A stretch of DNA of 64,000 nt from Alphaproteobacteria bacterium (GTDB taxonomy: Bacteria > Pseudomonadota > Alphaproteobacteria > UBA828): positions 4,064,001-4,128,000 of the forward strand of contig OZ243972.1 in NCBI GenBank assembly GCA_965214705.1. The letters run 5' to 3'. Positions within the stretch are counted from its first letter, which is position 1, and every line of letters begins with the position of its first letter. Shown piece by piece: positions 20,588 to 39,406 of this stretch. The notes beneath the pieces were generated by a model that did not search any database, was not told the origin of the DNA, and saw nothing but the letters and a program-made list of their open reading frames with translations. A program made the position numbers and the translations under genes.

Positions 20588-21269
20588 GCGATCATGGTCG
20601 GCGCAGTGGACCGATCACCATGATCGTCACGAGTGTCGGACGTGGTGACGTCGGGCCGTTCAGGCGCGACGGCACCAATGTCCGTCGAACTGCGGAGGCG
20701 CTCGTCGCCATCGGCGGCGGCGCTGACGCCGAGCGTGCACGCGGGACGTTCAGTCCGTAAGCCAAAGGTGAACTGCGGCACGATGTCGGCGGCCGCACTC
20801 GTCGGCGCATCGTCTGAGTCTTCATCGCCATGGTCATCGTCATCGCTTCATGCGAAGGCGCGTGCAGCGATGAGGGTGCCGGTGTTGGGAACGACAATGG
20901 CGGCGGGCGGCTCGACCGCGGGGCGGGCCTCGCGGTCAGGCGGGTGCGTGCCTGCGGCAAGCAGGCGAGGGTCGCGGCCGGACGGCAAGCGGAAGGAGGT
21001 GCAGACGCTCGCGATCGTGATTGGCGCAGCGAGCCGCTCGCCATGATCGTCACGAGTGCCGGGCTCGGTGGCGTCGGGCCGTTCAGGCACGACGGCATCA
21101 ATGTCCGTCGAAGTGCGGAGGCGCTCGTCGCCATCGGCGACGGCGCTGACGCCGAGGGTGCGCGCGTGACTTGCGGTTCGGCGGTCGAAGATGGATTGCG
21201 GCACGATGTCGGCGGCCGCACTCGCCGGTGCACCATGGCCATGTTCATCGCTCTGATCATCCTCACCGG
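20588..21269. repeat. Diverged ~260-bp direct duplication, 423-bp period
   Basis: CCATGATCGTCACGAGTG...GCTGACGCCGAG...GCGGCACGATGTCGGCGGCCGCACTCG present at ~20618 and ~21041. Confidence 0.8.
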
Positions 21270-21594
21270 CACAAGCGGGAGCACGCGCAGTCCATGGGCG
21301 TGCCGCTGCAACGGCCGGCGACGGCGCGCGAGCGCCGAGCCAGACGCGGTGACGCAGGACGGGCAAGCCGGAGAGCAGGACACACGCATCGAGCCCGGCG
21401 ATGGCGCGTAGCGTCGAGCCTGATGCACGGCGGCGGAGGGAGGGGGGAAGCACGGTCGCTGCAGCGAGCGGGAGCGGCGCCGGCGCGAAGCGCGGCGACG
21501 CCGGCGTTCGAGCGCGCACTCGGATTGGCGGTGCGCGATCCGACGGGCGGGCGCACAGGCCGACGCTCGTGATGCCCGTCGTGAAACACGACGA

Positions 21595-21626
21595 AAGCGG
21601 CCGATGCCTTGAGGCACCGGCCGCTT
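21595..21626 (-). terminator. Stem-loop, probable terminator of the original DUF2493 gene
   Basis: AAGCGGCCGATGCC-TTGA-GGCACCGGCCGCTT, 18 bp beyond the orphan TAA at 21645-21647. Confidence 0.6.
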
Positions 21627-21751
21627 CGTCGAGGCGCGCGCTGCTTACGCGGCTTTCATTATCATAATGCCGAGAAGGTTGTAATGCCGAGCGGGTCGCT
21701 GGGATCGGCTTAGTTCTGCCGTTTTCCTGCCGATTCGCTCGGCATTAATTG

Positions 21752-22753
21752 TCACGGCCAGTTTCCGCCGAGAACCATCATCAAGCTGTCCTTCACACCG
21801 TTGAAGGTCCCGCGGCGGATGGAAGGCGGCGTGTTGGCCCCAAGGATTTTCAACTTCTCGGCCGCGCTCGAACGAAGGTACACCTCGGTAATCTTGACGT
21901 CGGCGTGACCGAGCCAGATCGAGACCTTCCGGATGTCCCCCCGTGTGGCATCCAGAACGGTCATTGCCGACGAATGACGGAGCACGTGCGGGGTCACCCG
22001 CTTGCTCTTGATGGACGGGACCTTGCAGGCCGCGGTGGCGACATGCTGGTCGAGGATGTAAGCGAAGCCGTCCGTGCTCAACGCCCGCCCGCGGGCGCTG
22101 AGGAAGAGATAGCGATTGTTGACCGGCGGGCGGACGTCGAGCCACTCATTGAGGACGGCCCTCGTTTCCTTCCAGAGCGGCAGTTCGCGCTCGCGCCGCC
22201 CCTTGCCCAGGATGCGGACAGTCTCAAGATGGGGACTCGACAGGCTGTCGAGAGTGAGCCTGGTCAGTTCCGACACCCGGAGCCCGGCCGCGTAGCATAG
22301 ATGCAGCATGGCGCGGTCGCGCAGGCCTGCGACCGTCGCGGTATCCGGCGCATCCAGGATCGCCTGCATCTCCATCCGGTCGAGCCAGTCGATCAGGGGT
22401 TTGTCGGTGCGCTTCTGCGGGATGGCGCGCACCTGCAAGGCGAGGTCGAGACAACCCGGGACACGGTATTCCAGGTATCGGAAGAAGGACTTGATGGCGG
22501 CGAGGCGATTGTTGCGGGTGCCGATGCTGTTGTTGCGATCCTTCTCCAGAGACTCGAGGAAGGCCAGCAGTAGAGCCACCGTCAGGTGCTCGATCTTCAG
22601 GATGCAGGGGCGCACCCTGGTCTTTTCCGCCGCGTAGATGACGAGGAGGCGGAAGCACTCCTTATAGCTCTGCACGGTGTGGCGGCTGAAGCGCCGCTCG
22701 TTAGGAAGGTGCTCCTCCAGGAAGCTCGTCAGGTGGGGGGCAAGATCAGTCAT
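21752..22753 (-). CDS. RIT1 tyrosine recombinase C
   Basis: TRNNRLAAIKSFFRY, GLRVSE, GKGRRER, HVLRHS, LGH, TEVY. Confidence 0.92.
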   Translation of the reverse strand: MTDLAPHLTSFLEEHLPNERRFSRHTVQSYKECFRLLVIYAAEKTRVRPCILKIEHLTVALLLAFLESLEKDRNNSIGTRNNRLAAIKSFFRYLEYRVPGCLDLALQVRAIPQKRTDKPLIDWLDRMEMQAILDAPDTATVAGLRDRAMLHLCYAAGLRVSELTRLTLDSLSSPHLETVRILGKGRRERELPLWKETRAVLNEWLDVRPPVNNRYLFLSARGRALSTDGFAYILDQHVATAACKVPSIKSKRVTPHVLRHSSAMTVLDATRGDIRKVSIWLGHADVKITEVYLRSSAAEKLKILGANTPPSIRRGTFNGVKDSLMMVLGGNWP

Positions 22754-23678
22754 CGGAACCCCCATTCGCGTGAGCCTCTTCCGCGGCTTCGGCAATGCCG
22801 CGCAGGAGGGCAGGGGTCGATTCCAGATACCAGTAGGTGCTTGAGACGTTGACATGGCCGAGGTAGGTCGCAAGCGCCAGCATATGGCGGCTCGGATCGA
22901 TATCGGGAGCAAGGCTCTCAAGTGACCGCACAGCGAAGGAATGCCGCAGCGAGTGCGGTGTGGGTCCTCGCGCCGCGCCGGGTTCGCGGATTCCGGCTTG
23001 CTCCGCGAGTCTGCGGAAGACGGCCGATGCATAGCCTCTACTCGGACATAGGCCGGTGGCGATCACGAAGAGATGCGTGTCTGGCGTTTTCTCCTTGAGC
23101 CGTGACCCCAGGTAGCAGTTCAGCGCATCCCAGGTGGTCGGGTGCAGCGCGACCATCCTCGTCTTGCCGAACTTCGTGTCTCGGATGACGAGGCCGTCAG
23201 CGGTGATGTCATCCATCGTCAATGCGAGCGCTTCGCCGATGCGCAGGCCGGTCGCGGCGATGAGCCCGAACAGGTAGTGCCAGGTCAGCGGGGCGATGCT
23301 GCCGGCAGGCCCCATGGACAGCGCCGCCATCAGAAGTTTCCCGATGTCCGGGACCGATATCAGGCAGGGTCGCGGCCTCTGCTTGTTCGGGCGGCCCAGC
23401 GCATCGCGCGGCGGTACTTCGTGACGCGCATCCTCGGCATGCAGCCAGCTGGCAAAGTCATGTACCGCGCGCAGCCTTCTGACTCCTTCGGACTGCGATG
23501 CCGCTCTCGACGACGATGCCCACTCGATGGCGGTCGTGGAATGGATGAATGTTTCATCACGGTCCTCGGCGAACCTGGCGAAGCTGTGCAGCATCCCTTC
23601 GCACCGCCCGAACCGGTAGCCGAGCTTCTGTTTCATCGCGACGAAGCGCGAGACCTGTTCGCTGATTGTCATCGTCAT
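22746..23678 (-). CDS. RIT1 tyrosine recombinase B
   Basis: KLGYRF, TGLRIGE, TKFGKTRMV, HSLRHSF, LATYLGH, TYWYL. Confidence 0.92.
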   Translation of the reverse strand: MTMTISEQVSRFVAMKQKLGYRFGRCEGMLHSFARFAEDRDETFIHSTTAIEWASSSRAASQSEGVRRLRAVHDFASWLHAEDARHEVPPRDALGRPNKQRPRPCLISVPDIGKLLMAALSMGPAGSIAPLTWHYLFGLIAATGLRIGEALALTMDDITADGLVIRDTKFGKTRMVALHPTTWDALNCYLGSRLKEKTPDTHLFVIATGLCPSRGYASAVFRRLAEQAGIREPGAARGPTPHSLRHSFAVRSLESLAPDIDPSRHMLALATYLGHVNVSSTYWYLESTPALLRGIAEAAEEAHANGGSDD

Positions 23679-25249: not shown

Positions 25250-25401
25250 TCTTGTCGTCCTCCATCCGATTGAAAGGGAGGACGACTTTGTCGGAGAACC
25301 GACCCCAACAATTAATGCCGAGCGAATCGGCAGGAAAACGGCAGAACTAAGCCGATCCCCGCGACCCGCTCGGCATTACAACCTTCTCGGCATTATGCAC
25401 G

Positions 25402-26325
25402 TTATGCCGAGCTCGGCATAACGTGCATCACGGGAATGCCCAGCTGCTTCGCCTTGTCGACGAGGTTGCCGGTGATGCCGGAGCCGGGGAAGGCGATGAT
25501 GCCCTTGGGCAGCAGGTTGAGCAGCTCGTCGTTGCGGCGGAAGGGCGCGGCCTTGCCGTGAGCGCTCCAGTCGGGACGGCAGATCACCTGGTTGACGCCT
25601 CTGGCTTCCGCCCAGCTCGCGGCGATCTTCTCGACGCCGGGACCGCCACCATGCAGCAGCACCATGTCGCCGTACTTCGCGTGCGCCATGTCGAGCGTGC
25701 TCCAGATCGCGTCGGCATCGCTGACGGTCTTGCCGCCGGTGATCGCGACCAGGGTGCCCTCGGGCAGATGCGCCCTCGTCTCGCGGTCCTTGCGGGCGCG
25801 GCGGAAGTCGCGTGCGTCAATGGCGGCGGAGGTGAGCTGTCCGGTCTGGCTCGTGTGCGAGCCGTGCCGCGGGCGCCAGACCTCGCCGGTCTCGACGCGG
25901 TAGGCGTCGGCGGCGAGGTCGCGGAGCTTCTCGAAGGCGTCGCGCCTGTCGCCGAGGTTCTGCGCGCGGTCAGTCATCGTCTGCAACTCCCACGCCTTCA
26001 CCTCCGATCCGTCCTGCGCCTTCTCGAGGTCGCGCATCTCGGGCGCGATGCGGTCGACGGCGCGGTCCAGCCTCTGCACCTGGCTGTGCAGCATGTTGGT
26101 GAAGCCCCACATGAGCGGCTCGCGCTCGTCGGCCATCTGCGTGCCGTCGACGGTGATGCCGTCGACGATGACGCGGATGGCTTCGTTCAGCGCATCGATG
26201 GCATCGTCCTCGTCCCAGACGACCCTGCTGTCGAGCTCGCCGCGCTCGGGCGCTGCGCCGTAGAGGGCCATGCTGTCGCAAACGGTTGCAGTGGAAGAAG
26301 CAGTAGCGCTGGTTGTGTCGATCAT
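25402..26325 (-). CDS. DUF2493 / SLOG-family protein, last codons replaced by RIT1
   Basis: AITGG...LLHGG...AAPFRRNDELL...FPGSGITGNLVDKAKQLGIPV. The original end ...VMHVKAA* is restored by joining to 21645-21658. Confidence 0.88.
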   Translation of the reverse strand: MIDTTSATASSTATVCDSMALYGAAPERGELDSRVVWDEDDAIDALNEAIRVIVDGITVDGTQMADEREPLMWGFTNMLHSQVQRLDRAVDRIAPEMRDLEKAQDGSEVKAWELQTMTDRAQNLGDRRDAFEKLRDLAADAYRVETGEVWRPRHGSHTSQTGQLTSAAIDARDFRRARKDRETRAHLPEGTLVAITGGKTVSDADAIWSTLDMAHAKYGDMVLLHGGGPGVEKIAASWAEARGVNQVICRPDWSAHGKAAPFRRNDELLNLLPKGIIAFPGSGITGNLVDKAKQLGIPVMHVMPSSA

Positions 26326-26959
26326 GACGATCTCCTGTTGGTTCAACCTCCGGGACCCTGTGCCCCGTCGTGATGTCCTCTGTGATTCACGCGCGCGCAG
26401 GGGCAGCACCTGGCCCTGGGAAGTCTTAGGCGGGTTTAGGTGCGGAAGTTCGGCGATGTTGGTGCGGAAGATGGCGCCGCCGTGCCGGTGGGAACGGTGC
26501 TCCGCAGCAAATCCATTCCAGTGGTCATTACGGCGCCGGGCCGGGCGGGCCCGCTTGGGCCTGCCCGGCGTCTAGGCGCCGCGACGAATGGTTCCGCGAA
26601 TGGATTTGATGCGGTGCAGCGTGACGCGGCGGCCCCGCGTTAGGGGCCGGCGCGCTGCAAGACGAGGCGGTTGGTGATTGCACGCAAGCCATCTTCACGG
26701 TCGCCGAACTTCACGGCCCGCCTTAGACTTCCCTGGGTCAGGCCGCAGGGAGCGGAGCGACCGGAGGACCCGCAGGGTTGCTGGCGCGAGCACGTGTGGA
26801 AAACTCCGACATCACGACGGACGGACCCCTTTTCTGTTTCCTGCAAGCGGTGTGGTACCGCCGCAGCGATGAAAGACGCGGTGCCGGCCGCGGGCCGGGC
26901 AACGGGATCGAGGGCGAGCCGCTCCCGCCGATGACACCGCCGGTGGCGCTCGTCACCGC

Positions 26960-27058
26960 TCACAGCATCGGGTGGGTGTCGAGGAGGTGGCGGGCGACCT
27001 CGCGGACGCGATGGCGCTCGTGCACCCTGACGGGGCCGCGGGGGTCTTCGCTGAGATG
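26960..27058 (-). pseudogene. C-terminal fragment of a 75-aa gene split by RIT2 and RIT3
   Basis: HLSEDPRGPVRVHERHRVREVARHLLDTHPML*; joins in frame to 30779-30862 through core CATCTC. Confidence 0.75.
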
Positions 27059-27144
27059 GCATTTCGCGTCGAACAATATGTTGAGCAGCGACGCGAAGGC
27101 CCCGGCAGCTCTGGCTGCAGGGGCCTAAACGCTCAACATAGAGT

Positions 27145-28146
27145 TCACGACCTCGGGGCGCTCAGAACCCTGAGTAGCTTGTCCTGTGCGCCGCTGAAGG
27201 CCCCTTTTCGGATCCTAGGGGGCACATTCGCGTTGAGTATCTTGAGCTTCTCCGCTGTGTTGCCCCGCAGGTAAAGCTCCGTGCTCGATATGTTTGTGTG
27301 CCCCAGCCACATCGAGACGTAAAGAACGTTCCAGTGCGTCGCTTCCAACGTGTGCATGGCGCAGGAGCGCCTCAAGACGTGGGGCGTGATGCGCTTGCTG
27401 TCGATGGACGGCATAACTGATTTCGCGGCGGCAGCATGCACATTAAGACGCTGGGCGAAGCCGTGGCGGCTTATCGGTTGCCCACGGGCGCTGAGAAAGA
27501 GGTGATTAACGTGAACCTCGGGACGGATTACGAGCCAGCTCTGAAGAACGGACTGGGTTTCCTTCCAGAGAGGTAGGATCCGCTCGCGTCGCCCCTTGCC
27601 CATCACATGCACCGTATCCAAGTGCGGGTGCGAGAGGCTATCAATCGTAAGCGACGTCAGTTCAGAGACGCGAAGCGCTGCGGTATAGGCGAGATGAAGC
27701 ATCGCCCGGTCCCGCACACCGGAAGGTGTGCTGATGTCCGGTGCGTCGACAATCGCCTGGATTTCGTCGCGGTCGAGCCAGTGGGGTAGCGCTTTTTCGC
27801 TACGCTTCTCCGGAATGGCGTGCAACCGCCGAGAGAGTTCGAGACATGCGGGCTCTCTGTATTCGAGGTAACGAAAGAACGATTTGATTGCTGTTAGCCG
27901 GGCGTTCCTCGTGCGAGCCGTGTTTCCACGCTCTTTTTCCAGGTAGTCCAAGAAGTCGAGGATGAGCTCAATTGAGAGTTGCTCGAGTACGATGGAGCTC
28001 GGTTGAATGCCGAACCGACCGGCAGCGAACACAGTAAACAGCAGCAGACTGTCGGAGTAGCTGTCTATGGTATTCTGGCTGAGGTGCCGATCGCGTGGCA
28101 GGTGCTCGAGAACGAACGCCGTTACATGGGGAGCAATGTAAATCAT
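27145..28146 (-). CDS. RIT2 tyrosine recombinase C
   Basis: TRNARLTAIKSFFRY, ALRVSE, GKGRRER, HVLRRS, LGH, TELY. Confidence 0.92.
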   Translation of the reverse strand: MIYIAPHVTAFVLEHLPRDRHLSQNTIDSYSDSLLLFTVFAAGRFGIQPSSIVLEQLSIELILDFLDYLEKERGNTARTRNARLTAIKSFFRYLEYREPACLELSRRLHAIPEKRSEKALPHWLDRDEIQAIVDAPDISTPSGVRDRAMLHLAYTAALRVSELTSLTIDSLSHPHLDTVHVMGKGRRERILPLWKETQSVLQSWLVIRPEVHVNHLFLSARGQPISRHGFAQRLNVHAAAAKSVMPSIDSKRITPHVLRRSCAMHTLEATHWNVLYVSMWLGHTNISSTELYLRGNTAEKLKILNANVPPRIRKGAFSGAQDKLLRVLSAPRS

Positions 28147-29060
28147 TGTTGCGTCCTCCCCGTCTGTACCCGCTCTGCCTTCTCGGCGATTCGCCGAAGC
28201 AGTGGCGGAGTTGCCTTGAGATACCAGTACGTATTGGCCAGGTTGGAGTGGCCGAGGTAGGTAGAGAGAGCCAGCATGTGCGTGCTTGAGTCTTCGTCAC
28301 TGTCCAGGCTCTCCAGTACCCATACACAGTAGCTGTGCCGCAAATCGTGCAGCCGCGGTCCCGGCTCGCCCGGCTGTCCGCGCAGGCCCAACTGACGAAG
28401 AAGCCGCAAAAATGCACGTGTGGCGGTAGGACCAGCCGGCGGCTTGCCTATTGCCAGAACAAACAGGTGCTCACCAGGCCCGCCAAGGCGTTTTCTGATC
28501 GCGACATACTCGTCTAGGGCGCGCCATGTGTCTTCGTGAAGCGGCAGTAGTCGGCTCTTGCGGAACTTCGATTCGCGGACGAGTAAGCCGTCTGAGGTGA
28601 TGTCTGACAGCTGCAGAGCCAGTGCCTCCGACCTTCGTATGCCCGTCACCGCCATCAGCCCGAACAGGTAATGCCATGTATACGGCGCAATCGGGTCACG
28701 AGTGGGCAGGGACAGAGCAGCGTCCATCACCTGACGAACCTGGGCTCGCGTGAGCAAGTACGGTGACGGCCTGCTTGGGTTTCGCCGGCCCACGACGTCG
28801 CGAGGCGGCACCTCGTGGCGTGCATCCTCCGCGTGTAGCGAGAGTGCGAAGTTTCGAGCGATCTGCAGCTTGAGCGAAGCCCTGTTCGGGGACGTTCCCT
28901 TGGAAGCCCAGTCGATGATTCGGTCGCAGCGTGTCCATTCGTCCCCGAATGCCGTGGCGAACTCGGCGTACTCCCGCAGCACCCGCTCGTTGTCCGCAAA
29001 CTTGTAGCCAAGCTTCCTGTTCAGCTCGACGTAGCGTTCGACGTGGAGGATTAACGACAT
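28143..29060 (-). CDS. RIT2 tyrosine recombinase B
   Basis: KLGYKF, TGIRRSE, SKFRKSRLLP, HDLRHS, LSTYLGH, TYWYL. Confidence 0.92.
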   Translation of the reverse strand: MSLILHVERYVELNRKLGYKFADNERVLREYAEFATAFGDEWTRCDRIIDWASKGTSPNRASLKLQIARNFALSLHAEDARHEVPPRDVVGRRNPSRPSPYLLTRAQVRQVMDAALSLPTRDPIAPYTWHYLFGLMAVTGIRRSEALALQLSDITSDGLLVRESKFRKSRLLPLHEDTWRALDEYVAIRKRLGGPGEHLFVLAIGKPPAGPTATRAFLRLLRQLGLRGQPGEPGPRLHDLRHSYCVWVLESLDSDEDSSTHMLALSTYLGHSNLANTYWYLKATPPLLRRIAEKAERVQTGRTQQ

Positions 29061-30622
29061 GCCTCATCTCCTCCAATCCAGGGTTGTGCAACGTGGAGAA
29101 GCATTTCGGTGTCCACCTTGGCGTAGATCGCCGTGGTCTCTCGGAACCGATGGCGAAGCACCGCCCCAACAACGTCCAGCGTGGCGCCAGAGCGCAGCAG
29201 GCTGGTCGCGGCGGAATGGCGAAAGACACGAACGCCCCCCGCGCCGGGGGGTTTGACCTCGGCGCGGTCGAGCGCATCGCGCGCGATTAGCGATACCATC
29301 TGGCCGTCCCGGAACGGTCGATGTGGCGCTCGCGTCCGGAGGAACACTTTCTCTTCGTCGACCCGGGGACGCGCGGTGAGGATGTAGTCCAGCAACGCGT
29401 CACCGACATCCTGCGGAAGGGGCAGAGCGGCCTCGATTGCCGACTTGCTACGGACACGAAGAGAGGCGTTCTTCCAATCGATGTCTGACAGTTTCAGATT
29501 CGAGACGTCCCGTGCCCGGAGGCCGAGCCTGCCAAGAAGGAGGACAATCGTACGATCACGTCTCCCTTTGCCTGTCGTTGTGTCGAACGATCCAATCACC
29601 CGTTCCATATCGTCGGGCGAGATGTATTTCGGCAATGTCGAGAGCCGCCAATGAGGAACTGTCGGGATTGCTTCGACCAGTTCTGCGGGGCATTCGCCCT
29701 TCGAGGCCAAGTAGCGGATGTACATGCGCACCGCTCCGACCAGATTCTTAGCGTAGGATGGCGAGACGTCCTTTAGGTGATGTAGGAGAGCACTTCTGAT
29801 TACTTCAACATCGTATCCGCGCGGATTATCGCCGAGATTCGGCAGCACTCTGGAAAGGTTGTAAATGTGATTCTGAATCGCCTCGTCTCCGGTGCCGCGG
29901 TGTTGACGCAACCACTCTCGGTAGTCATCCAGCCCGTCGTTGGGCTCCTTCCTCGATGGCAACATCTTCGGAGCTAGACCCCGTTCAGCGAGGAACGTGA
30001 TGAACGCCCGGGTCTGGTAAGGGACGCGAACAGCGGCACGATGTCCTCTGAATCCAAAGAAGACACCGGGCCGGGCACAATTGCAGTCGTGGCTGGAGAA
30101 CCGGTCGAGCACGGACTTGTCGATGTCGGCCAGGGAGATGCGACAATGATGGAGCCAGAAGAGGAAGTGACGGCTCCCGCCGCGGCAATGTCTGATTGAG
30201 CTCGCCGAATGACCCTCCGCCTGCCGCTGCTCCAGGAAGGTGTTCAGCAGGCGGAGGTTGTCATCAATCTCTCCTGGAGTAGTTATCCGCCCGGTCTCCT
30301 CAAGAAACTGAACAAACGTGCGAAGACCGGATACAAAGTGAGGTACCTCCCGGTTGTGAAGCCGATTGAACTTGAACGGCGGCACCGGACAGGTGCACTC
30401 ATGCTCAAGAAAGCGGTGCAGGATATCGTCGTCCACCGTGTCCAGAGAGGTACGGCTAAGCTTCAACCAAGCCAGAAAGTGTTCCGCGGGACCCAGATAC
30501 CTGAGGATCTTGGCGTGGCCACGTCCCGCCTCAGACAGGTAGGCCGAAAACTGCGGGATGATGCCTGTGAACAGGGCCTGATCCGTTCCAGAGCTGACGG
30601 TGCATCGGGTGTCTTGTGACAT
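29051..30622 (-). CDS. RIT2 tyrosine recombinase A
   Basis: LPKYI, RLGLRARD, LPLPQDVG, VFRHS, LRH, TAIYAK; AAAGGAGGA RBS before the ATG at 30622. Confidence 0.92.
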   Translation of the reverse strand: MSQDTRCTVSSGTDQALFTGIIPQFSAYLSEAGRGHAKILRYLGPAEHFLAWLKLSRTSLDTVDDDILHRFLEHECTCPVPPFKFNRLHNREVPHFVSGLRTFVQFLEETGRITTPGEIDDNLRLLNTFLEQRQAEGHSASSIRHCRGGSRHFLFWLHHCRISLADIDKSVLDRFSSHDCNCARPGVFFGFRGHRAAVRVPYQTRAFITFLAERGLAPKMLPSRKEPNDGLDDYREWLRQHRGTGDEAIQNHIYNLSRVLPNLGDNPRGYDVEVIRSALLHHLKDVSPSYAKNLVGAVRMYIRYLASKGECPAELVEAIPTVPHWRLSTLPKYISPDDMERVIGSFDTTTGKGRRDRTIVLLLGRLGLRARDVSNLKLSDIDWKNASLRVRSKSAIEAALPLPQDVGDALLDYILTARPRVDEEKVFLRTRAPHRPFRDGQMVSLIARDALDRAEVKPPGAGGVRVFRHSAATSLLRSGATLDVVGAVLRHRFRETTAIYAKVDTEMLLHVAQPWIGGDEACR

Positions 30623-30778
30623 CGTGATGTCCTCCTTTCGTGACAACGCGAAAGAAGCACATCACAAGACTATGTTGAGCGTTTAGGCCCCTGCAGCCAG
30701 AGCTGCCGGGGCCTTCGCGTCGCTGCTCAACATATTGTTCGACGCGAAATGCCATCTTCTATGTTGAGCTCAACATAG

Positions 30779-30862
30779 GAGATGCACCACATAGAACACC
30801 GCGCCGGGGTTGAGGATGTCGTCCTGGCGGAAGACGTCCCCGACGTAGTCGCCGTGCTGGTA
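30779..30862 (-). pseudogene. Middle fragment of the split 75-aa gene
   Basis: YQHGDYVGDVFRQDDILNPGAVFYVVHL, lying between two RIT palindromes. Confidence 0.75.
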
Positions 30863-31193
30863 TTACGTTGAGCTCAACGTAATGAATTGGCCTGTATCGG
30901 TCGTGCGCAGCAGGACCGATACAGGCATTGAGCTGAGCCGCGCTGCACGGCCGTAGTGCCGGGCTATGGGGAAAGTAACCGCTGGGTGGGAGCCGATTAG
31001 GCCGAAGCGGTGCAACCTGTTGGTGTCGCTGGCGGCGCCGGCACTCTGAATCTCCACTTATCAGGTTGCGACGCGGCTGTGCAGGGGCTCGCGACGATGT
31101 TTCGCCGCCGGGCAGCACGAAGCGGGCGCAGGAGCGGTCGCGGCGCGGCGGCCGGGGGGACTGTTGTCGGACCTTGTCGGTTCTGACGCATCG

Positions 31194-32414
31194 TCACGGC
31201 GGTCGGGTATTCGTCGCCCGCATGGCTGCTTGGGGCTGCGGCTCAAGAATGACGGTTTGCCGCAGCGTTGCCTCGCCGCACTGGCGGCACACGGTGATGT
31301 CGATCCCCGTCAGTCGCAGCATCATCTGCTGCGTCGTTTCCGGCTCCCGCGGTTCAGGGGCAGGCTGGCCGAGCAGGTCTCGGCAGCGGGCGAGCTTGCG
31401 AGCCCGGCAGCGATTGGCGAGCAAGCCGTAGTGGCGCAGGCGGGTGAAGCCGCGCGGGAGGACGTGCAGGAGGAAGCGGCGGATGAACTCGTCGACGTCG
31501 AGACGCATCACCTTGACCTTGTTGCCGTCAGCGTAGTCGCGCCAACGGAAGCGAACGTGCTCGCCGTCGAAGTCGACGAGGCGATGATTGGCGATGGCAG
31601 CCTTGTGGGTGTAGCGCCCGAGATAGGCCAGAACGTGCCCGGCGCCGGCGAACGGGGCCTTGGTGTAGACCACCCAGTCGTTCGACCGCAGCGCGGTCTT
31701 CAGACACTCGAACTCGCGGCTGTCGTCACCACCGCCGACGACCTTGAGCCGGAGTTCGCCGTCGCGGTGCGCGGCGCCGAGGAAGTCGAGATACTTGCCG
31801 CGGAAGACCTTCGAGAGCGCGACCGTGGGGAACAGGAAGCCCTTGCGCGCGGGAGTGAGCCAGCGCTCTCTGTCCGGGCTCAGACCGCCGTCGGTGACGA
31901 TACAGTGGACATGGATGTGCTGTCCCAGATTCTGCCCCCAAGTGTGCAGCACCATGGTGATGCCGAGCTCGCCGCCGAGCCAGCGGGGATTGCGGCCGAA
32001 CTCGAGCAGGGTCTGGGAGGCGGCCTTGAAGAGCAGCCTGTAGATGAGCGCGGCATTGCCCTGGGCCACGGGGTTGAGCTCGTGGGGCAGGGTGAACACG
32101 ACATGCCAGTAGTCGATGTCGAGCAGATCGGCGCACTGACGCTCAACCCACCTGGTCTGCGAGAGGGTCTGGCACTTGGGGCAATGACGGTTCCGGCACG
32201 AGGCGTACTGGATCGTCACCGCCCCGCAGTGATCGCATTCTGCCTTGAACCCGCCGAGCACAGCGGTGCGGCAGTTCACCAGCGCGTCGACGACCCTCTG
32301 CTGCTGGGCCGAGAGCAGATGTGTCTCGCCATAGGCGTCGCCGCGCTCGCGCAGGATGTCCGCGACCTCCAGCGCCGGCCGTGTGGCTGGCGCCGCGTGG
32401 CCGACATGAGCCAC
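31194..32414 (-). CDS. IS91-family rolling-circle transposase
   Basis: SCRNRHCPKC, HVVFTLP, HTW...HIHVH, YLGRY, RLRHYG. Confidence 0.93.
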   Translation of the reverse strand: MAHVGHAAPATRPALEVADILRERGDAYGETHLLSAQQQRVVDALVNCRTAVLGGFKAECDHCGAVTIQYASCRNRHCPKCQTLSQTRWVERQCADLLDIDYWHVVFTLPHELNPVAQGNAALIYRLLFKAASQTLLEFGRNPRWLGGELGITMVLHTWGQNLGQHIHVHCIVTDGGLSPDRERWLTPARKGFLFPTVALSKVFRGKYLDFLGAAHRDGELRLKVVGGGDDSREFECLKTALRSNDWVVYTKAPFAGAGHVLAYLGRYTHKAAIANHRLVDFDGEHVRFRWRDYADGNKVKVMRLDVDEFIRRFLLHVLPRGFTRLRHYGLLANRCRARKLARCRDLLGQPAPEPREPETTQQMMLRLTGIDITVCRQCGEATLRQTVILEPQPQAAMRATNTRPP

Positions 32415-32417
32415 CGG

Positions 32418-33272
32418 TCAGGCCTGGGCAGGACGCGGAAACTCCAGCAGGTCCAGGGGCGACGGCGTGGCGGACGTCTTGTCGTGAGCAAGGTGAAGGT
32501 AGCGCATGGTCGAGCGGATTGAGGTGTGCCCGAGGCGGCGTTGGATGACATGCAGCTCGACGCCGGCCTCGAGGAGCCCGGTGGCGTAGCAATGGCGCAG
32601 CGTGTGGATCCCGCCGGGCTTGGCGATCCCGGCTTTGTCCTTGGCTCGATCGTAAACGTGTGCTGGCCCATGGCGCGTCATCGGCCGGCCGGGAATCCGA
32701 CCGGGGAACAGCCAGTGCTCGGGCCGTACCCGCTGCCAGTACTCGCGCAGCTCGTCGAGCAGCCGGGGCGAGAGCGGGACGTAGCGGTCCTTGTTGCCCT
32801 TGCCCTGATCGACGCGCAGGCACATCCGCTGTGAGTCGATATCGCTGATCTGCAACCGGCCGAGCTCGCTCGCCCGAAGCCCCGCTGCATAGGCCGTCAT
32901 CAGCAAGGCGCGGTGCTTGCGGTTGATGGTGACGCTGAACAGCCGCACCAGTTCGTCTTGGTTGAGCAGTACGGGCAGGGTGGAAGGCGTCTTGGCGAAG
33001 GGCAGATAGAAGTGCGGCTCGGGCAAGCCCAGCGTGATGCGATAGAGGAAGCGGATCCCTTGGCGAGCGCTGTTGCAGCTCTGCCAAGCCAGCCCCCGCT
33101 CTTCGTGAAGAAAGATGAGGTACTCCTGGACTTCCTCCGCTGAGATGTGCTCGGGGCTGCGACCGTAGTGAACCGCGAGCCCGGAGACCGAGTTGAGGTA
33201 GGACTTCCTGGTGTTCTCGGCGAAGCCGCGAACCGTCATGTCGTTGATCATGCGCTGGCGAAGTGCCGTCAT
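32418..33272 (-). CDS. Tyrosine recombinase of IS91-like element 2
   Basis: MTALRQRMINDM, GLRASE, GKGNKDR, HTLRHC, LGH, TMRY. Confidence 0.93.
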   Translation of the reverse strand: MTALRQRMINDMTVRGFAENTRKSYLNSVSGLAVHYGRSPEHISAEEVQEYLIFLHEERGLAWQSCNSARQGIRFLYRITLGLPEPHFYLPFAKTPSTLPVLLNQDELVRLFSVTINRKHRALLMTAYAAGLRASELGRLQISDIDSQRMCLRVDQGKGNKDRYVPLSPRLLDELREYWQRVRPEHWLFPGRIPGRPMTRHGPAHVYDRAKDKAGIAKPGGIHTLRHCYATGLLEAGVELHVIQRRLGHTSIRSTMRYLHLAHDKTSATPSPLDLLEFPRPAQA

Positions 33273-33624
33273 GGGGCGTCTCCCTCTGGGTTTGGTCTGT
33301 CACGAAGACACGCCCATGCTCTTGCTCGCCGGCTTGGCGGTCGACGACCATCGATCAACGAGGGAGAAACAGGATTCGACCCTGCGCCCAGACGCTGGAG
33401 CGAACGGCCACACTCAACTTACGCGCGGCAAGGAGATCACTCTGGGCACCCGGCGGCCGAGGCGCCCCGCCGCGGAACGCGGCTCAGTTCAATATCAGTT
33501 ATGTCGAGAGAGTTTTTATGGGCAGCTGAGCCGCTCCGGTCCTGCAGGAACAAGCCGCAGGACCGGATTCGCTCAACATTATGTAAGCCTCTCCTCCCCC
33601 ACTGAGGATAGGAGGAGAGTGACG

Positions 33625-35190
33625 ATGTCATCGACAGCAACGCGGGTCTTTCGGCCGGGGCCGACGCCGCACCAGTTCCAACATCACCTTCAAGCATTTG
33701 TGGACTATTTGCGCCGCTGCGACTTTACCGAGAACACCATCAGCAGCCTGTGGCGTTCGGCGCGGCACCTTCTCGTTTGGCTGCACCAAGAGGGCGTGGC
33801 CATTGTCTCGGTTGACGATGCCGTGTTGCGCCGTTTCCGTCATCACGAATGCGGATGTGCAGGGACGCTGCCGTCGCGCCGCAAAGAGACTACCGTGTAC
33901 CCACGCCCCTTGATGACGGGCGCGTTGAAGCTCGTGCAGTACTTGGAGGACACGGGCCACATCCCACATCCCGGCGACCTTCATGAAGGATTGACCCTTC
34001 TGGAAGACTTCATCGCCCGGCGCGCAATCGACGGTTACGCTGCCGCCACGCTCGCCTATTGGCGGGGCGTGTGCCGGCACCTTCTCTTCTGGATGCATCG
34101 GTCCCGCATTCCCATGCGGGAAGTCGATTCCGATGTGGTGGAGCAGTTCCTCGGCCACGACTGCGTCTGCCCAGGCTGCTCCAGGAACTTCGGCAGTCTC
34201 CGCTACGACCCGCAGTACGTTCGTCCCTTCGTCGAGTTTGCGCAGTACCTCACTGACAGAGGCGTGCTCCACCATCGGACGGTGGTGCCCGAAACGGCGA
34301 GGGACACCTCGCTGGACGGATTCGGCGAGTGGCTTCGACGACATCGCGGCATTGGGGCTGAGAGAATCCGCGATCACAAACGCAACGTCAGCACGTTGCT
34401 CGCGAGACTTGGGCAAGATCCTGAAGGTTACAACGCTGCGCGCATCCGAGCCGCGCTGCTTGCACGGTTCGAGGGGGTGTCATGGGGTCATGCCCAGACG
34501 CTGGCGACCTCCATGCAAATGTATCTGCGGTATCTTGCTGCTCGCGGAATCTGTTCGCCGACTCTCGTCGATGCAGTCCCAAGGGGCCGCGTCTGGAAGT
34601 TGGCCAGCCTGCCTCGATATCTTCCTGCCGAGGCCATCGAGCAGGTCATCCGATGCTGCGATGTCACGACGCCCGTAGGTCTGCGTGATCGGGCGATCCT
34701 CCTTCTCCTCGCCCGCCTCGGCCTACGCGCAGGAGATATCGTCCGGCTACGTCTCGATGACATCGACTGGCACAACGCGATAATCCGCGTGTGCGGGAAG
34801 TCCCGGCGGCAGGTGGGATTGCCGCTTCCCCAGGATGCAGGCGACGCCGTTCTCGCCTACATCGAGCAGGCGCGTCCGCGCGTCGCCGAGGACCAGGTCT
34901 TCCTTCGGGCAAAAGCACCGCATCGGCCCTTTGCTTGTAGTGGAACGGTCTCGGCACGCGTCAAATCCGCTCTGAAGCGGGCCGGCATGAGCGAAGTCCG
35001 ACCGCGGGGCTCGCACCTCTTCCGTCACTCCACAGCGACCAACTTGGTTCGCTCCGGAGTGTCGCTCGACGTTATCGGCGCGCTTCTGCGGCATCGCTCG
35101 CTGGATACCACCGCGATCTATGCCAAGACCGACCGCCCGATGCTTCTCGAGGTGGCGCAGCCCTGGATCGGGGATCTGCCATGCACATGA
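33625..35190 (+). CDS. RIT3 tyrosine recombinase A
   Basis: LPRYL, RLGLRAGD, LPLPQDAG, HLFRHS, LRH, TAIYAK; GGAGGAG RBS. Confidence 0.92.
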   Translation: MSSTATRVFRPGPTPHQFQHHLQAFVDYLRRCDFTENTISSLWRSARHLLVWLHQEGVAIVSVDDAVLRRFRHHECGCAGTLPSRRKETTVYPRPLMTGALKLVQYLEDTGHIPHPGDLHEGLTLLEDFIARRAIDGYAAATLAYWRGVCRHLLFWMHRSRIPMREVDSDVVEQFLGHDCVCPGCSRNFGSLRYDPQYVRPFVEFAQYLTDRGVLHHRTVVPETARDTSLDGFGEWLRRHRGIGAERIRDHKRNVSTLLARLGQDPEGYNAARIRAALLARFEGVSWGHAQTLATSMQMYLRYLAARGICSPTLVDAVPRGRVWKLASLPRYLPAEAIEQVIRCCDVTTPVGLRDRAILLLLARLGLRAGDIVRLRLDDIDWHNAIIRVCGKSRRQVGLPLPQDAGDAVLAYIEQARPRVAEDQVFLRAKAPHRPFACSGTVSARVKSALKRAGMSEVRPRGSHLFRHSTATNLVRSGVSLDVIGALLRHRSLDTTAIYAKTDRPMLLEVAQPWIGDLPCT

Positions 35191-36104
35191 AGAAGCATGT
35201 TGGCCGTTTCGTCGCCCTCAAACGACATCTTGGCTGCCGGTACGAGAACGAAGAACGCCTGCTGCTCGCGTGGGCAGATAACGCGATGGCGCTCGGAGAG
35301 GACTTTGTCCGGGCCGAAACGATGATTCGTTTTGCCTCCGACACGCCATCCCCCGGGAGAGCTCGGAAACGTCTGAGGCAACTCCGGCAGTTCGCCCTAT
35401 GGCTGCACAGTGAAGATGACCGTCACGAGATTCCACACATAGACGCGCTTGGCCGCGCGAAGGTGCAGAGGCGTACACCGCGCCTGTTGGGTGAGGCTGA
35501 GGTGAAACGGCTGATGGAAGCCGCCCTGCGCCTTCCGCCGGCCGGTTCGATCACGCCGCACACCTTGTACTGTGTGATCGGCTTGGTGGCTGTAACCGGT
35601 TTGCGGCGCTCCGAAGTCTGTGGACTGCGCTTCTCGGACATCACCTCCGACGGGCTCGTCATTCGAGAAACCAAGTTCAGGAAGTCTCGACTCGTTCCGC
35701 TGCATCCGAACTCGTGTGATGCACTCGCGGCCTATCTGGAGATCCGCAAGCAGCTCGGCGGCACGAGCGACGCGTTGTTCGTTCTGTCGAACGGCAAACC
35801 CCTCAACAAGGCCACTTTGACCACGATGTTCGTGAAGCTGGCCCGTGCCACAGGACTACGCGGCGGTCCCGGTGAGCCGGGTGTCAGGCTTCACGACTTG
35901 AGGCATCGCTTCTCCGTCACGTCGCTTGAGCAGGCAATCGCAACCGATCGAGACCAGGTCAGCCGGCACATGCTCGCGCTCTCGACCTACCTCGGCCACT
36001 CCTCCGTTACCTCGACCTATTGGTACCTCGAGGCGACGCCGACCTTGCTGAAGCAGATTGCCTGGGAGACGGAAAACGCACGGACGCAGAGGATGAGGCC
36101 ATGA
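35181..36104 (+). CDS. RIT3 tyrosine recombinase B
   Basis: TGLRRSE, TKFRKSRLVP, HDLRHR, LSTYLGH, TYWYL. Confidence 0.92.
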   Translation: MHMKKHVGRFVALKRHLGCRYENEERLLLAWADNAMALGEDFVRAETMIRFASDTPSPGRARKRLRQLRQFALWLHSEDDRHEIPHIDALGRAKVQRRTPRLLGEAEVKRLMEAALRLPPAGSITPHTLYCVIGLVAVTGLRRSEVCGLRFSDITSDGLVIRETKFRKSRLVPLHPNSCDALAAYLEIRKQLGGTSDALFVLSNGKPLNKATLTTMFVKLARATGLRGGPGEPGVRLHDLRHRFSVTSLEQAIATDRDQVSRHMLALSTYLGHSSVTSTYWYLEATPTLLKQIAWETENARTQRMRP

Positions 36105-36154
36105 CCGAATTAGCTCCCCATATCAGCATGTTCCTACGGCACCATATGCCCCAG

Positions 36155-38314
36155 CCCAAGTTGGCACTTTTGTCCTACCCATGTCCTTTATCGTGTTGAT
36201 GTAACGCGATATTTCTCTCGGCCGGTTCCAACATGGCACTACATTTTGTTGGATTCTGTCAGTTCGGCAGGCGGGTCCTCGTGCGGTGGATGGCGGGTTC
36301 CACGCCCGCCGCCGAGGAGATTGCGGCAACCTCAGCGGCCGGGCGCGTGTCCTGTCGATTGACGATCAAGGTGCCGTCGGTCTGGCGCAGGCGCGTGGTG
36401 ATCCGCACCCAGGTCCGCATGCTCTCGCGGATCGATGCCCAGCACTTGTGGATGTCCCGCGCGGCCAGCCGGGTACGGATCAGATGCACGGCGTGGTAGG
36501 CCAGCACGGCGATCAGCAGGTGGGCCGCGATGCGCCGGTCGAGCTGGTGCCAGATCGGGCGAAGGCCGAGTTCGGATTTCAGGCTTCGGAATGTCGCCTC
36601 GATATCCGTGATCCGCCAGTACGTCCGCAGGACCGTCTCGATATCCCAGTCGACGTGGCTGGTGCGCAGCACATAGGCGCCCGCGCCCTCATCGGCCTCG
36701 TCGTATCGCGGCCTGCGCTTGAAGCGCACGGCGGTGGCATTGGGGCCGGTGTCCGCCTTCTCGACCGTGATCTCGTAGTGCCTGGCGACGGCGGAGAAGC
36801 GCTGCTTGAGGCGGCCTATGCTCTCCAGCACCTTGTCGTAGCGCTTGAGGCGGCCCTTGACCGCAAGGCCGCCGTGGAGCCTTTGCAGCGCCGCCTCGAA
36901 GCGGTTCCGCCTCAGGCCGATGATCGCGTTCTCGGCCTTCTTCTTGCCCTCGCTGACGACGTAGAGCCGCGCCTCGCCGTCCTCGCTGGCAAGCCGCCAG
37001 GCCCGCACCTCGTGGCGCGCGCTGGTGATCAGCAGGGCCTCGGGTCCGCCCTCGGGCGGCGCAGGCCTGGCACCGCGGCTGACCGCGATCCAGTCGTAGC
37101 CCGGCTCGCCCAGCCAGACGATGTTCTCCTCGGTGGCGATGCCCGCGTCCATGACCACCGTGGGCTTCGCCGCCGTGCCGCCGCATACCGCCTCGAGCCG
37201 GGCCAGCGCCTCGTGCAGCGTGCCCGGCTCGCTCACGTTGCCGGGCAGGATCTCGCAACTGCGCGGGAAGCCCGCACCGTCGAGCGCCAGCGCCAGCGTG
37301 ATGAGGGGACAGTCGTCGCGCTTCTGCTTGGAGCGCCCGAACCTGGGAAGCTCGCCGTCGGTGTGGCCGTGGTAGTGGACGTTGGTGAGATCGTAGAAGG
37401 CGATCGTCTCGGGCAGGTCGAGCAGCGCGCGCTCACGGTTGAACAGTTCCCTCTGGATGGCGGCCCGGTGGCGCCAGAGCAGGTCGCCGATGCGATAGAG
37501 CGTCTTGCGCCGCAGCGCCTTGCGGTCGCCCTCCAGGCCCAGGAGCTCGGCGGCCGCGCTGTCGTGGCGGAGCCAGCGGCTGGTATCACGCTCGCTGGCG
37601 GGATGGACCATCCTGGCGACGATCAGCGCGCTGGCGATGCGTCCGTCGCGGCCCTTGATGTCGAGGCCGTGGAGGATTTCGGCGAAGCCAAGGTCGTCGA
37701 GGGCCTTGAGGCACAGGCGCTCGCAGCCGACGGTGCGCGGGTTCTCATGCTCCAGGGTATCGAGGTCGACGGTGGCGATCTCGGGCTTGCGCGCCTCTTC
37801 CTGCATCGCCTCGGCACGGAACCCCCTGGCCCTGAGCTTGGCGACGATGTCCTCGGCTGCGGCCTGCACGTCCGGGACGGCTTGGAGCAGCGGCGGGCGG
37901 CCGTGCAGCAGCGCCTCGGCGAGTTCGGCCACTTCGCGCCATTTCTCCTTCGGCACCGGATAGTCGGTGCCGAGGTTGAGGAGCGTGCGCTGCCTGACCT
38001 TGTCGCCGATGCGCTGGGAGAGCACGAGGCGATGGCTTCGGACGGGCTTGCCGTCGGTGGTGTGGGTCTTGGTTGCCCTGATGAACATGTCGCCCGTCGC
38101 GAGATTGTTGCGAGGGGCCAAGATTTGTCGGCTTGGGGTCTGGGGTCAAGGGAAAATCGTCAATACCTAACAACTCCTGGCACTACAACGCGCTTCCAGC
38201 GCCTCAATTACACATATAGTGGCATCATCTCGGAGCTACCCCAATATGTGGTACTTCGGTCCGCAAAATATGGGCAGACCGGCATTGAGCAACCGGAAAA
38301 AGTGCCAACTTGGG
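36155..38314 (-). mobile_element. IS1634-family insertion sequence, copy 2 (complete)
   Basis: 17-bp TIR CCCAAGTTGGCACTTTT at both ends; CCAG duplicated at 36151-36154 and 38315-38318. Confidence 0.92.
36259..38088 (-). CDS. IS1634-family DDE transposase
   Basis: MFIRATKT, FYDLT, VMDAG, GAYVLRT, IEATFRSLKSELGLRPIWH. Confidence 0.92.
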   Translation of the reverse strand: MFIRATKTHTTDGKPVRSHRLVLSQRIGDKVRQRTLLNLGTDYPVPKEKWREVAELAEALLHGRPPLLQAVPDVQAAAEDIVAKLRARGFRAEAMQEEARKPEIATVDLDTLEHENPRTVGCERLCLKALDDLGFAEILHGLDIKGRDGRIASALIVARMVHPASERDTSRWLRHDSAAAELLGLEGDRKALRRKTLYRIGDLLWRHRAAIQRELFNRERALLDLPETIAFYDLTNVHYHGHTDGELPRFGRSKQKRDDCPLITLALALDGAGFPRSCEILPGNVSEPGTLHEALARLEAVCGGTAAKPTVVMDAGIATEENIVWLGEPGYDWIAVSRGARPAPPEGGPEALLITSARHEVRAWRLASEDGEARLYVVSEGKKKAENAIIGLRRNRFEAALQRLHGGLAVKGRLKRYDKVLESIGRLKQRFSAVARHYEITVEKADTGPNATAVRFKRRPRYDEADEGAGAYVLRTSHVDWDIETVLRTYWRITDIEATFRSLKSELGLRPIWHQLDRRIAAHLLIAVLAYHAVHLIRTRLAARDIHKCWASIRESMRTWVRITTRLRQTDGTLIVNRQDTRPAAEVAAISSAAGVEPAIHRTRTRLPN

Positions 38315-39349
38315 CCAGGAGCGCAACGCCAGCCGGCATACTGTCGGCAGCTACACCGACAGCTTCGTGCTGTTGAGCCGCTTCGCGGCAGATCGGCTCG
38401 GCATCCGCCCCAGCGCGATCACGATCGAGCACCTCTCGAGCGAGCTGGTTCTCGACTTCCTCGATCATCTGGAGAGAGACCGGGGGAACACGGTCCCCAC
38501 GCGGAACGTGCGCCTTGCCGCGATCAAGTCGTTCTTCCGATACCTCGAGTACCGTTTACCGGCCTGTCTCGATGTGGCTCAACAGATCAGCGCCATCCCG
38601 ATGAAGCGTCATGACCAAACGGTCATCGACTGCCTCGACCACGATGAAGTGCAGGCATTGCTTGACGCACCGGACCCCAAAACCGCAGCTGGTTTGCGCG
38701 ATCGGGCAATGCTGCACCTGGCCTACTGCGCCGGGCTTCGGGTCTCGGAACTGGTCGGGGTCATGGTCGGCGACCTCGGGCATCCGCACGCCGATACGGT
38801 GCGGGTGACGGGGAAGGGTCGAAGGAAGCGCACGCTCCCGCTGTGGAAGGAAACCAGTGCGGTTCTCCGCGACTGGCTTGCCATCCGGCCAGCCGTGGAG
38901 GACGACCACGTCTTCCTCAATGCCAGGTGCGCCCCGATAAGCCGCCATGGGTTCGCCCATCGCTTGGCGCTGCACGCCGCGACCGCTCGCAAGACGATGC
39001 CGTCATTGGCGAGCAAGCGGATCACGCCGCACGTGTTGAGGCACGCGTGTGGCCTCCATACCTACGAGGTCACAAGGGACATTCGAAAGGTGTCTCTCTG
39101 GCTGGGGCACGCCAGCATCCGCAGTACGGAGATATACCTGCGTAGCGATCCCATCGGGAAGCTTGAGATCCTTGCTCGAGGAGTTCCTCCCTCGATCAGA
39201 AAGGGCGCCTTTACGGACGCGCCTGATCGTCTGATGGCCATTCTGCACGACGCACGCGCCGCGTAGAAATGTTGAGCGAATCCGGTCCTGCGGCTTGTTC
39301 CTGCAGGACCGGAGCGGCTCAGCTGCCCATAAAAACTCTCTCGACATAA

Positions 39350-39406
39350 CTGATAGACGCGGGCTTCGTTCTCGCTCACCCGCCGGAACCTGATGTCGCT
39401 GCTCAT
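39350..39406 (-). pseudogene. N-terminal fragment of the split 75-aa gene
   Basis: MSSDIRFRRVSENEARVYQ with GGAGA RBS, abutting the RIT3 end. Confidence 0.75.

Follow-up and report, generated by a model that had tools for sequence, protein, structure and literature searches.

RIT (recombinase in trio) elements, their inverted repeats (IRs) and a palindrome near their ends have already been described (Van Houdt et al.), and hairpin intermediates were proposed for them in a mobilome study of 2017 (PMC5737581). In Table 1 of a 2023 paper on the transposons known as SEs, the movement, target specificity and empty site of RITs are entered as 'not tested'; the same paper describes for SEs and Tn554 a 6-bp spacer that originates in the old flank and is reproduced at the new site as a 'fingerprint/footprint' (PMC10214605). 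The window considered here, a stretch of 64,000 nucleotides from an alphaproteobacterial genome (contig OZ243972.1, positions 4,064,001 to 4,128,000), contains three RIT elements, RIT1 to RIT3, in the region 21659-39355, as revealed by reading of the ends in combination with a repeat finder and a profile search of the open reading frames (ORFs). These units are the same in kind as the known RITs (Van Houdt 2009/2012; Ricker 2013) and are members of that group, having in common with them the overlapping ritA-ritB-ritC genes, about 3.7 kb between the IRs and multiple identical copies per genome. Comparison with other copies revealed a fixed anatomy of the ends, a palindrome that is borne by the element and stands at either end of it, a turnover of short core sequences and a concerted evolution of the IR arms. 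Together, these features probably reflect Xer-like recombination at the cores flanking the palindrome, with a 6-bp carry-over and inversion or flipping of the element body.

The palindrome belongs to the mobile unit

In all three RITs, the order proposed by a sequence-only reading of this locus was borne out, namely a 6-bp core, a perfect 20-bp palindrome, an inverted core, an IR, ritABC, a second IR and a further core, and every core and palindrome listed by that reading was found in place when the ends were read directly. The cores are designated outer (o), inner (i) and far-end (f) in the layout flank-o-palindrome-i-IR...IR-f-flank. On the plus strand they read TTATCA (21659-21664), TGCACG (25396-25401) and CGTGCA (25422-25427) in RIT1; GAGATG (27053-27058), CATCTT (30753-30758) and GAGATG (30779-30784) in RIT2, with the palindrome at 30759-30778; and CTGGTA (30857-30862), TATCAG (33493-33498) and CTGATA (39350-39355) in RIT3, with the palindrome at 30863-30882. 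The RIT1 palindrome (25402-25421) is likewise perfect, and as its two flanking cores are exact inverses of each other, 25396-25427 forms a perfect palindrome of 32 bp. The IRs detected by the repeat finder are 88-101 nt long and pair 21663-21763 with 25297-25397 in RIT1 (101 nt, 94% complementary), 27054-27141 with 30670-30757 in RIT2 (88 nt, 100%) and 33493-33580 with 39268-39355 in RIT3 (88 nt, 100%). Two features of RIT3 went unmentioned in the sequence-only reading, an IS91-family insertion between palindrome and inner core and a split ritC.

The source genome consists of three contigs (C1 to C3; 7.92 Mb) and carries ten full RIT copies in five families (R1 to R5), together with many paralogues of both RIT target genes. 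RIT1 is situated in the last codons of a YAcAr/SLOG-domain gene, and RIT2 and RIT3 lie head to head within one 75-amino-acid (aa) ORF, for which no family match was obtained. Each of the five uninterrupted copies of the 75-aa ORF shows a single hexamer at the RIT2 site and a single one at the RIT3 site, and a single hexamer is likewise present in each of the seven contiguous copies of the 3' end of the RIT1 target (in five of them, TGCAGA); a palindrome was looked for in these 12 empty paralogues and found in none. Real empty alleles within the same genome thereby confirm the proposal that removal of the unit leaves a single core and restores the ORF; with RIT1 removed in silico, the displaced end reads V M I M K A A stop, the same length as in the paralogues. 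Copies of one family at different sites have the palindrome and the outer core in common, the palindrome being identical among them, and their flanks diverge beyond. The palindrome, absent from the empty paralogues and common to the copies, therefore belongs to the mobile unit, as had been claimed. In three of four public sequencing runs (Logan contigs except for one Hi-C run), a joint from 27052 to 30779 with six shared letters corresponds to an empty or paralogous allele and is not independent of the comparison with empty paralogues; in run X3, one contig has the palindrome and outer core beside a different flank.

The features of the region are as follows.

21645-21664, minus strand: displaced 3' end of the RIT1 target ORF, beginning with the far-end core f (TGATAA in the target sense, 21659-21664)
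21665-21763, no strand: RIT1 IR arm at the ritC end, in which the 10-bp motif TAATGCCGAG occurs three times
21752-23032, minus strand: RIT1 ritC, extent from the first start codon
22746-23897, minus strand: RIT1 ritB, extent from the first start codon
23675-25249, minus strand: RIT1 ritA
25297-25395, no strand: RIT1 IR arm at the ritA end
25396-25427, no strand: RIT1 inner core, palindrome and outer core
25428-26409, minus strand: RIT1 target gene, YAcAr/SLOG-domain protein, its 3' end cut off by the insertion
26960-27058, minus strand: C-terminal part of the 75-aa target ORF, its extent covering the RIT2 far-end core (27053-27058)
27059-27141, no strand: RIT2 IR arm at the ritC end
27145-28146, minus strand: RIT2 ritC
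28143-29060, minus strand: RIT2 ritB
29051-30646, minus strand: RIT2 ritA
30670-30752, no strand: RIT2 IR arm at the ritA end
30753-30784, no strand: RIT2 inner core CATCTT, palindrome and outer core GAGATG
30785-30856, minus strand: central part of the 75-aa target ORF, separating RIT2 from RIT3
30857-30882, no strand: RIT3 outer core CTGGTA and palindrome
30883-33492, minus strand: IS91-family element between the RIT3 palindrome and inner core
33493-33580, no strand: RIT3 inner core TATCAG and IR arm at the ritA end
33625-35190, plus strand: RIT3 ritA
35181-36104, plus strand: RIT3 ritB
36101-36154, plus strand: RIT3 ritC, first 18 codons
36155-38314, minus strand: insertion sequence (IS) with a DDE transposase, within ritC
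38319-39266, plus strand: RIT3 ritC, remainder
39268-39355, no strand: RIT3 IR arm at the ritC end, with the far-end core CTGATA at 39350-39355
39350-39406, minus strand: N-terminal piece of the 75-aa target ORF, start codon at 39404-39406

The genes follow the order ritA-ritB-ritC, with overlaps of 10 and 4 bp in RIT2, and all nine rit ORFs matched PF00589 (Phage_integrase) in the Pfam profile search. RitA, the long RIT recombinase, characterized by an additional core-binding region at its N-terminus, measures 522-531 aa here and shows two SAM-like matches in RIT1 (Pfam). RitA, RitB and RitC orthologues are 43-58% identical across the three elements, and paralogues are 24-30% identical. The best NCBIfam matches of the Rit proteins are XerC, XerD, XerA and integron integrases, and a PDB sequence search, for which RIT1 RitC was the only query, revealed XerD and XerA as the closest solved relatives of this protein. 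Between the IRs of the window RITs, only three Xer-like recombinase genes were found, and the Tn554/SE gene set (an ordinary and a large recombinase plus TnpC/Srap) was not encountered.

Some neighboring features were also recorded. The two target genes are parts of a module that recurs as many paralogous copies across the three contigs, each copy having the two genes a few kb apart (e.g., C1:348401-352714, C3:4858-6953 and C2:487592-494588). At 20588-21290 of the window, two 280-nt direct repeats are 80% identical and 423 nt apart, and the 341-aa ORF that hosts them (20592-21617, minus strand) has no Pfam match. Elsewhere in the genome, C1:1946556-1949585 is a regular array of at least 19 units of a repeat containing CCGGGGCGCGCGCGCCCCGG, with a spacing of about 73 bp, that looks like a CRISPR array.

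Abundance and either-end position of the palindromes

The genome contains 86 perfect palindromes of at least 20 bp, 13 of which are RIT-type. Twelve of these 13 adjoin a RIT IR or the IS91-family element of RIT ends, and the last one (C3:2305631) is a remnant beside a truncated IS91-family copy, with no RitA match nearby. This solo palindrome, at C3:2305631-2305662, is an R4-type palindrome of 32 bp, and a third R5-type palindrome with an IR start is located at C1:4169765-4169788, about 330 bp from the end of contig C1. The comparison was extended to 61 foreign loci encoding RitA relatives from other genomes, which belong to Alpha-, Gamma- and Deltaproteobacteria, Acidobacteria, Gemmatimonadetes and other phyla; 58 of them were scanned for IRs, the partial matches L059-L061 being left out. 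No IR was obtained at 17 of the 58 scanned loci, some RITs being recovered only by the scan for perfect palindromes, and L062 and L065 were too rearranged to be scored. The foreign RIT loci, 704 kb in total, contain 46 perfect palindromes of at least 18 bp, 29 of them RIT-type; a mononucleotide shuffle gave nine palindromes. RIT-type palindromes are beyond chance.

The sequence-only reading had also placed the palindrome at the ritA end as a rule and had itself regarded occurrence at either end as evidence to the contrary. Occurrence at either end is what was found. The palindrome is at the ritC end in five of the ten RITs of the genome, namely R1_b (C1:4045077-4046648), R2_b (on C3), R3_b (on C2) and both R5 copies. 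In 26 foreign RITs, a perfect palindrome is located 6 bp beyond one of the IRs, at the ritA end in 13 and at the ritC end in 13; seven further foreign RITs with an imperfect palindrome are divided three to four in the same order, and in two others, inserted DNA separates the palindrome from the ritA-end IR. The four copies in a single long-read chromosome of a metagenome-assembled genome (MAG; L003-L006) differ among themselves, the ritA end having the palindrome in one of them and the ritC end in the other three. The palindrome is thus not a marker of the ritA end.

The same end structure was found on three named plasmids, with the palindrome on the ritA side in Rhizorhabdus wittichii pDC01 and on the ritC side in a Serratia proteamaculans plasmid. 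In Dinoroseobacter shibae pDSHI03 (L064, 4770-11057), the palindrome TTATCCAAAGCTTTGGATAA lies beyond the helicase-side IR, and the 148-nt IRs enclose the rit trio together with a DEAD/DEAH-box helicase gene, which indicates that RITs can carry a passenger. A Gemmatimonadetes MAG contig (L035, 174-3877) contains an R3-like RIT with arms 91% identical to those of RIT3. Like RIT3, it occupies the TATCAG site, here in a homologue of the 75-aa ORF; the MAG carries the label of another phylum, and its contig, 4.1 kb long, shows no palindrome.

Motif make-up of the ends and turnover of the cores

Detailed measurements are available for 32 elements (26 foreign loci and six copies of the source genome), all of which have a 6-bp core, a 20-bp palindrome, a 6-bp core and then an IR starting with TAATG or TTATG. 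When a palindrome half is aligned with the 10 nt that open the adjacent IR, a median of 8 of 10 positions agree, and the resulting 10-bp motif approximates to T/A-TATG-NN-GAG, of which each IR arm has three copies in RIT1, two in RIT2 and two in RIT3. The palindrome halves meet tail to tail (GAG|CTC), and their heads (TTAT...) each face a core, so that the succession of palindrome half, inner core and IR terminus has the layout of a simple tyrosine-recombinase core site with a 6-bp spacer. The central hexamer of the palindrome differs between families (GAGCTC, GTGCAC, AAGCTT, GACGTC and AACGTT); since any perfect even palindrome has a palindromic center, this hexamer says nothing about cleavage there. 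Within an element, complementarity of the two IR arms is 94-100% along their full length of 82-109 nt (median 98.9%, n=23), compared with a median of 57% shared between arms of different elements and 81-91% between close relatives, indicating that the arms evolve in concert, spacers included.

Copy-to-copy differences within a family are confined to the hexamers. The outer core is constant in R1 (TGCACG, three copies) and in L003-L006 (ATGCCG, four copies), and in R5 it reads CCGCTG in two copies and CCGATG, with a difference at one of six positions, in the third R5-type end near the end of C1. The far-end core varies from site to site and equals the native hexamer at the RIT2 and RIT3 sites; that of RIT1 (TGATAA) occurs in none of the seven empty paralogues of its target. 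Between target hexamer and element core, at least the first two or three bases are common (TG in R1, CA in R2 and CTG in R3). Outer and far-end cores are identical in 15 of 30 elements, the outer core is the reverse complement of the inner core in 17 of 32, and all three agree in nine. The inner core of R1_b, TCTGCA, is the reverse complement of TGCAGA, the hexamer native to most empty paralogues and also the far-end core of R1_c, which upholds the claim of the sequence-only reading that the inner core is an inverted target-like sequence. In three sibling pairs with palindromes on opposite sides (old to new: R1_c to R1_b, L004 to L003/L005/L006, and R3_b to R3_win, the window copy RIT3), the new outer core is exactly the reverse complement of the old inner core and the new inner core exactly that of the old far-end core; a further pair, L032/L037, has identical cores throughout and is uninformative. 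This comparison of siblings suggests that inner cores would be former target cores.

Boundaries between motif and core are also occupied by insertion sequences. In RIT3, the palindrome and the inner core are 2.6 kb apart, with the IS91-family element (30883-33492) inserted exactly between them. This element encodes a Y2 transposase (31194-32414; NF033538, E 1.5e-129) and a 284-aa tyrosine recombinase (32418-33272; PF00589, E 1.5e-37) that is about 28% identical to RitC, and it is present in about 11 copies in the genome, including C1:1526489-1529097, C2:576239-578847 and C3:317033-319641. In every copy, its TGAATTGG end directly follows a RIT-type motif (..AACATAA, ..AACGTAA, ..AACATAG or ..GCGATAT), so that the insertion point is the boundary between motif and 6-bp core, and four of the copies cut at this boundary inside RIT ends (R2_b, R3_win, R3_b and R4). 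Relatives of the element stand beside RIT ends at the foreign loci L019, L028, L033, L060 and L062. From its insertion points, the IS91-family element looks like an IS homing to RIT recombination sites. An annotated IS91 transposase also adjoins a RIT on a Mesorhizobium plasmid. Five further copies (C1:1986295, C1:3503378, C2:498017, C3:1790900 and C1:1594569) adjoin a degenerate TTATGTGCAGTTGAACATAA-type palindrome and a long palindrome (AGGTTAAGGGTTGGGCAGGCTCTC...), which may be the ends of another element family or RIT-derived miniature elements.

The ritC gene of RIT3 is split after codon 18 by the 2160-bp DDE IS (36155-38314), which has 17-bp terminal inverted repeats and a target duplication CCAG. 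This IS is missing from the sister copy R3_b, in which 4.3 kb of DNA is inserted in ritB; the ritB gene of R2_b contains a 1.7-kb insert, R4 exceeds the length of an intact RIT by about 1.5 kb, and only R1 (three copies), R2 in the window and R5 (two copies) look intact. A group II intron or other RNA as the nature of the 2.6-kb and 2.2-kb inserts was rejected, both being ISs, and an Rfam scan of 20000-41000 gave no match. A 402-aa ORF at 32143-33351 (minus strand), with no family match and no likeness to RitC, was taken as a spurious high-GC ORF, the true gene at this locus being 32418-33272.

Mechanism of movement and comparison with known systems

In the favored mechanism of recombination at the cores, RIT ends would be arrays of one putative recombinase-binding motif, the 10-bp sequence described above, with the palindrome representing two extra copies placed tail to tail. 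Three junctions would result: J1, flank-o-motif; J2, motif-i-motif; and J3, motif-f-flank, of which J2 would amount to a full dif/lox-like site, its arms inverted about the 6-bp spacer. The Rit recombinases would exchange strands at the cores, not at the center of the palindrome. The unit o-palindrome-i-IR...IR would insert beside a target hexamer resembling its own core, 6 bp of the old target would travel along with it, and recombination at the inner core would bring the palindrome to the opposite IR and leave the former target core inside the element, inverted. This may proceed by in-place inversion, with J2 as the full site and J3 as the half-site, or by integration via the second core of a palindromic circle junction, IR-f-palindrome-i-IR; the products would be the same, and both routes may operate. 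The two-step integration/inversion reaction, the second of the alternatives offered by the sequence-only reading, fits the core patterns. In-place inversion alone was rejected as the source of either-end polarity, the cores of R1_b not being derivable from the constant inner core of the family, and a flip through the second core was rejected as the sole route in view of the IS on the same palindrome side in both R3 copies. We infer which proteins bind which sites, the order of the steps and whether a double-stranded circle or a folded strand is the substrate.

Several points weigh against this mechanism. There is no palindrome at either end of five foreign RITs (L021, L025, L035, L036 and L066), some of which are on short MAG contigs, and in L066 (Aromatoleum plasmid 2) none lies within 400 bp of the 46-nt IRs. 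The pairs R2_win/R2_b and L026/L029 fit the relation between new inner and old far-end core but not that of the outer core; the old-to-new direction of the rule was picked after seeing the data, and the exact matches carry few informative bits because paralogous targets make the cores of a family alike. The IS position in R3 fits in-place inversion or two independent IS insertions, not second-core integration, and in-place inversion leaves R1_b unexplained. A circle junction, an inversion isomer and an excision footprint were not directly observed in the public runs, which, as mostly assembled contigs, could show only the empty or paralogous allele. Lastly, a plain IR-core-IR circle junction would already be a full site, so that the model alone leaves the extra palindrome unexplained.

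Recombination at the cores nevertheless makes definite predictions: strand exchange at the three 6-bp cores, a mobile unit extending from the outer core to the far IR with the palindrome included, an intermediate junction of the form IR-core-palindrome-core-IR, and new insertions that obey the core relations. RITs are widespread, and these comparative rules make their mechanism directly testable.

A folded single strand or a cruciform as the substrate, by analogy with integron attC and CTX-phage attP(+), is a possible, if rather doubtful, alternative. Arms, cores and palindrome halves would pair within one strand to form one duplex Xer-type site, consisting of the IR-end motif, the paired cores and the palindrome-half motif in the stem, with the palindrome center as the hairpin tip; one strand would be exchanged, followed by replication, and each round could shift the palindrome to the opposite IR, the hexamer of the preceding target becoming the new inner core. 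The products would be those of the favored mechanism, and the need for the palindrome would be accounted for. Concerted evolution of whole arms is expected if the arms pair or template each other, but arm homogeneity could also stem from gene conversion or repeated inversion, and a symmetric double-stranded site would keep the palindrome halves alike as well. Outer and inner cores would pair exactly in the 17 of 32 elements noted above but would be left unpaired in the other 15. In the imperfect palindromes of L044, L053 and L063, the single mismatch is the central pair, and multiple identical copies with donor sites still occupied fit a copy-out process. Exonuclease-protected RIT DNA without circle junctions, for which hairpin intermediates were proposed (PMC5737581), and the proposal that SEs use one specific strand (PMC10214605) are also consistent with folding. 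If folding were true, the palindrome, the near-perfect arms and the exonuclease-resistant, junction-less RIT DNA would all be accounted for.

Protelomerase-like resolution, in which the palindrome would be cut 6 bp apart around its center and resealed as hairpins to give a linear capped intermediate, was the other chemistry offered by the sequence-only reading and is very unlikely. Perfect palindromes with a palindromic central hexamer, a circle junction that would be a palindrome of about 230 bp and the exonuclease-protected RIT DNA without circle junctions (PMC5737581) speak for it, but the palindromic center is inherent to any even perfect palindrome and has no weight. The Rit proteins match only XerC, XerD, XerA and integron-integrase models and XerD and XerA structures, no protelomerase family was matched in the Pfam, NCBIfam and PDB sequence searches (the last with RIT1 RitC only), copy-to-copy differences are all in the flanking cores and none at the center, and the motif tails, not the heads, meet at the center. 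This chemistry is therefore unsupported.

That the palindrome is outside the transposition machinery, whether as a feature already present in the target, as a tiny element in its own right or as a rit terminator or operator, is hardly credible and already largely refuted: its location outside the long IRs, the solo palindrome by the truncated IS at C3:2305631 and the few RITs without a detectable palindrome would suit this explanation, but the palindrome is missing from each of the 12 empty paralogues, does not vary in sequence among the copies of one family, whatever their site, is built of the family's own IR motif, stands at a fixed 6-bp distance from the IR in every measured element and, occurring at either end, cannot be a dedicated ritA operator or ritC terminator.

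Among known systems, Tn554 and SEs resemble RITs in being tyrosine transposons with several recombinases, in their target specificity and in the lack of a target duplication, and their ends consist of short imperfect IRs of 13-19 bp with one spacer at the circle junction (PMC10214605). Judging from their sequences, the outer and inner cores of RITs appear to behave like the 6-bp fingerprint/footprint of these elements. In the parts of this literature considered, the extra palindrome and the second, inverted core are RIT features not described for SEs or Tn554, and the gene sets differ from that of RITs, being IntA/Tfp/IntB/Srap and TnpA/B/C, respectively (PMC10214605). The 6+20+6 geometry, the identity of palindrome half and IR motif, the 1:1 polarity and the core relations were not found in the RIT literature searched, and Ricker et al. 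2013 (Plasmid 70:226) or supplements may hold part of them.

With Xer/dif and Cre/lox, RITs share at J2 (motif-6 bp-inverted motif) the simple tyrosine-recombinase core layout; unlike these systems, RITs have three different recombinases, long multi-motif IR arms and half-sites at the element-target junctions. The protelomerases TelK, TelN and ResT use a perfect palindrome as the substrate of tyrosine chemistry. RITs differ from their replicons in being integrated, not linear, and exchange in RITs maps to the flanks of the palindrome. In integron attC and CTX-phage attP(+), an imperfect or perfect palindrome, when folded, creates a duplex site for the integron integrase or Xer-like recombinases, exchange is limited to one strand, and some heterology within the overlap can be tolerated. 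The palindromic junction of RITs, about 230 nt, would be far longer than these sites, and its single-strandedness is hypothetical; if folding back were true, RITs would be a chromosomal three-recombinase analogue of integron cassettes and CTX-phage integration.

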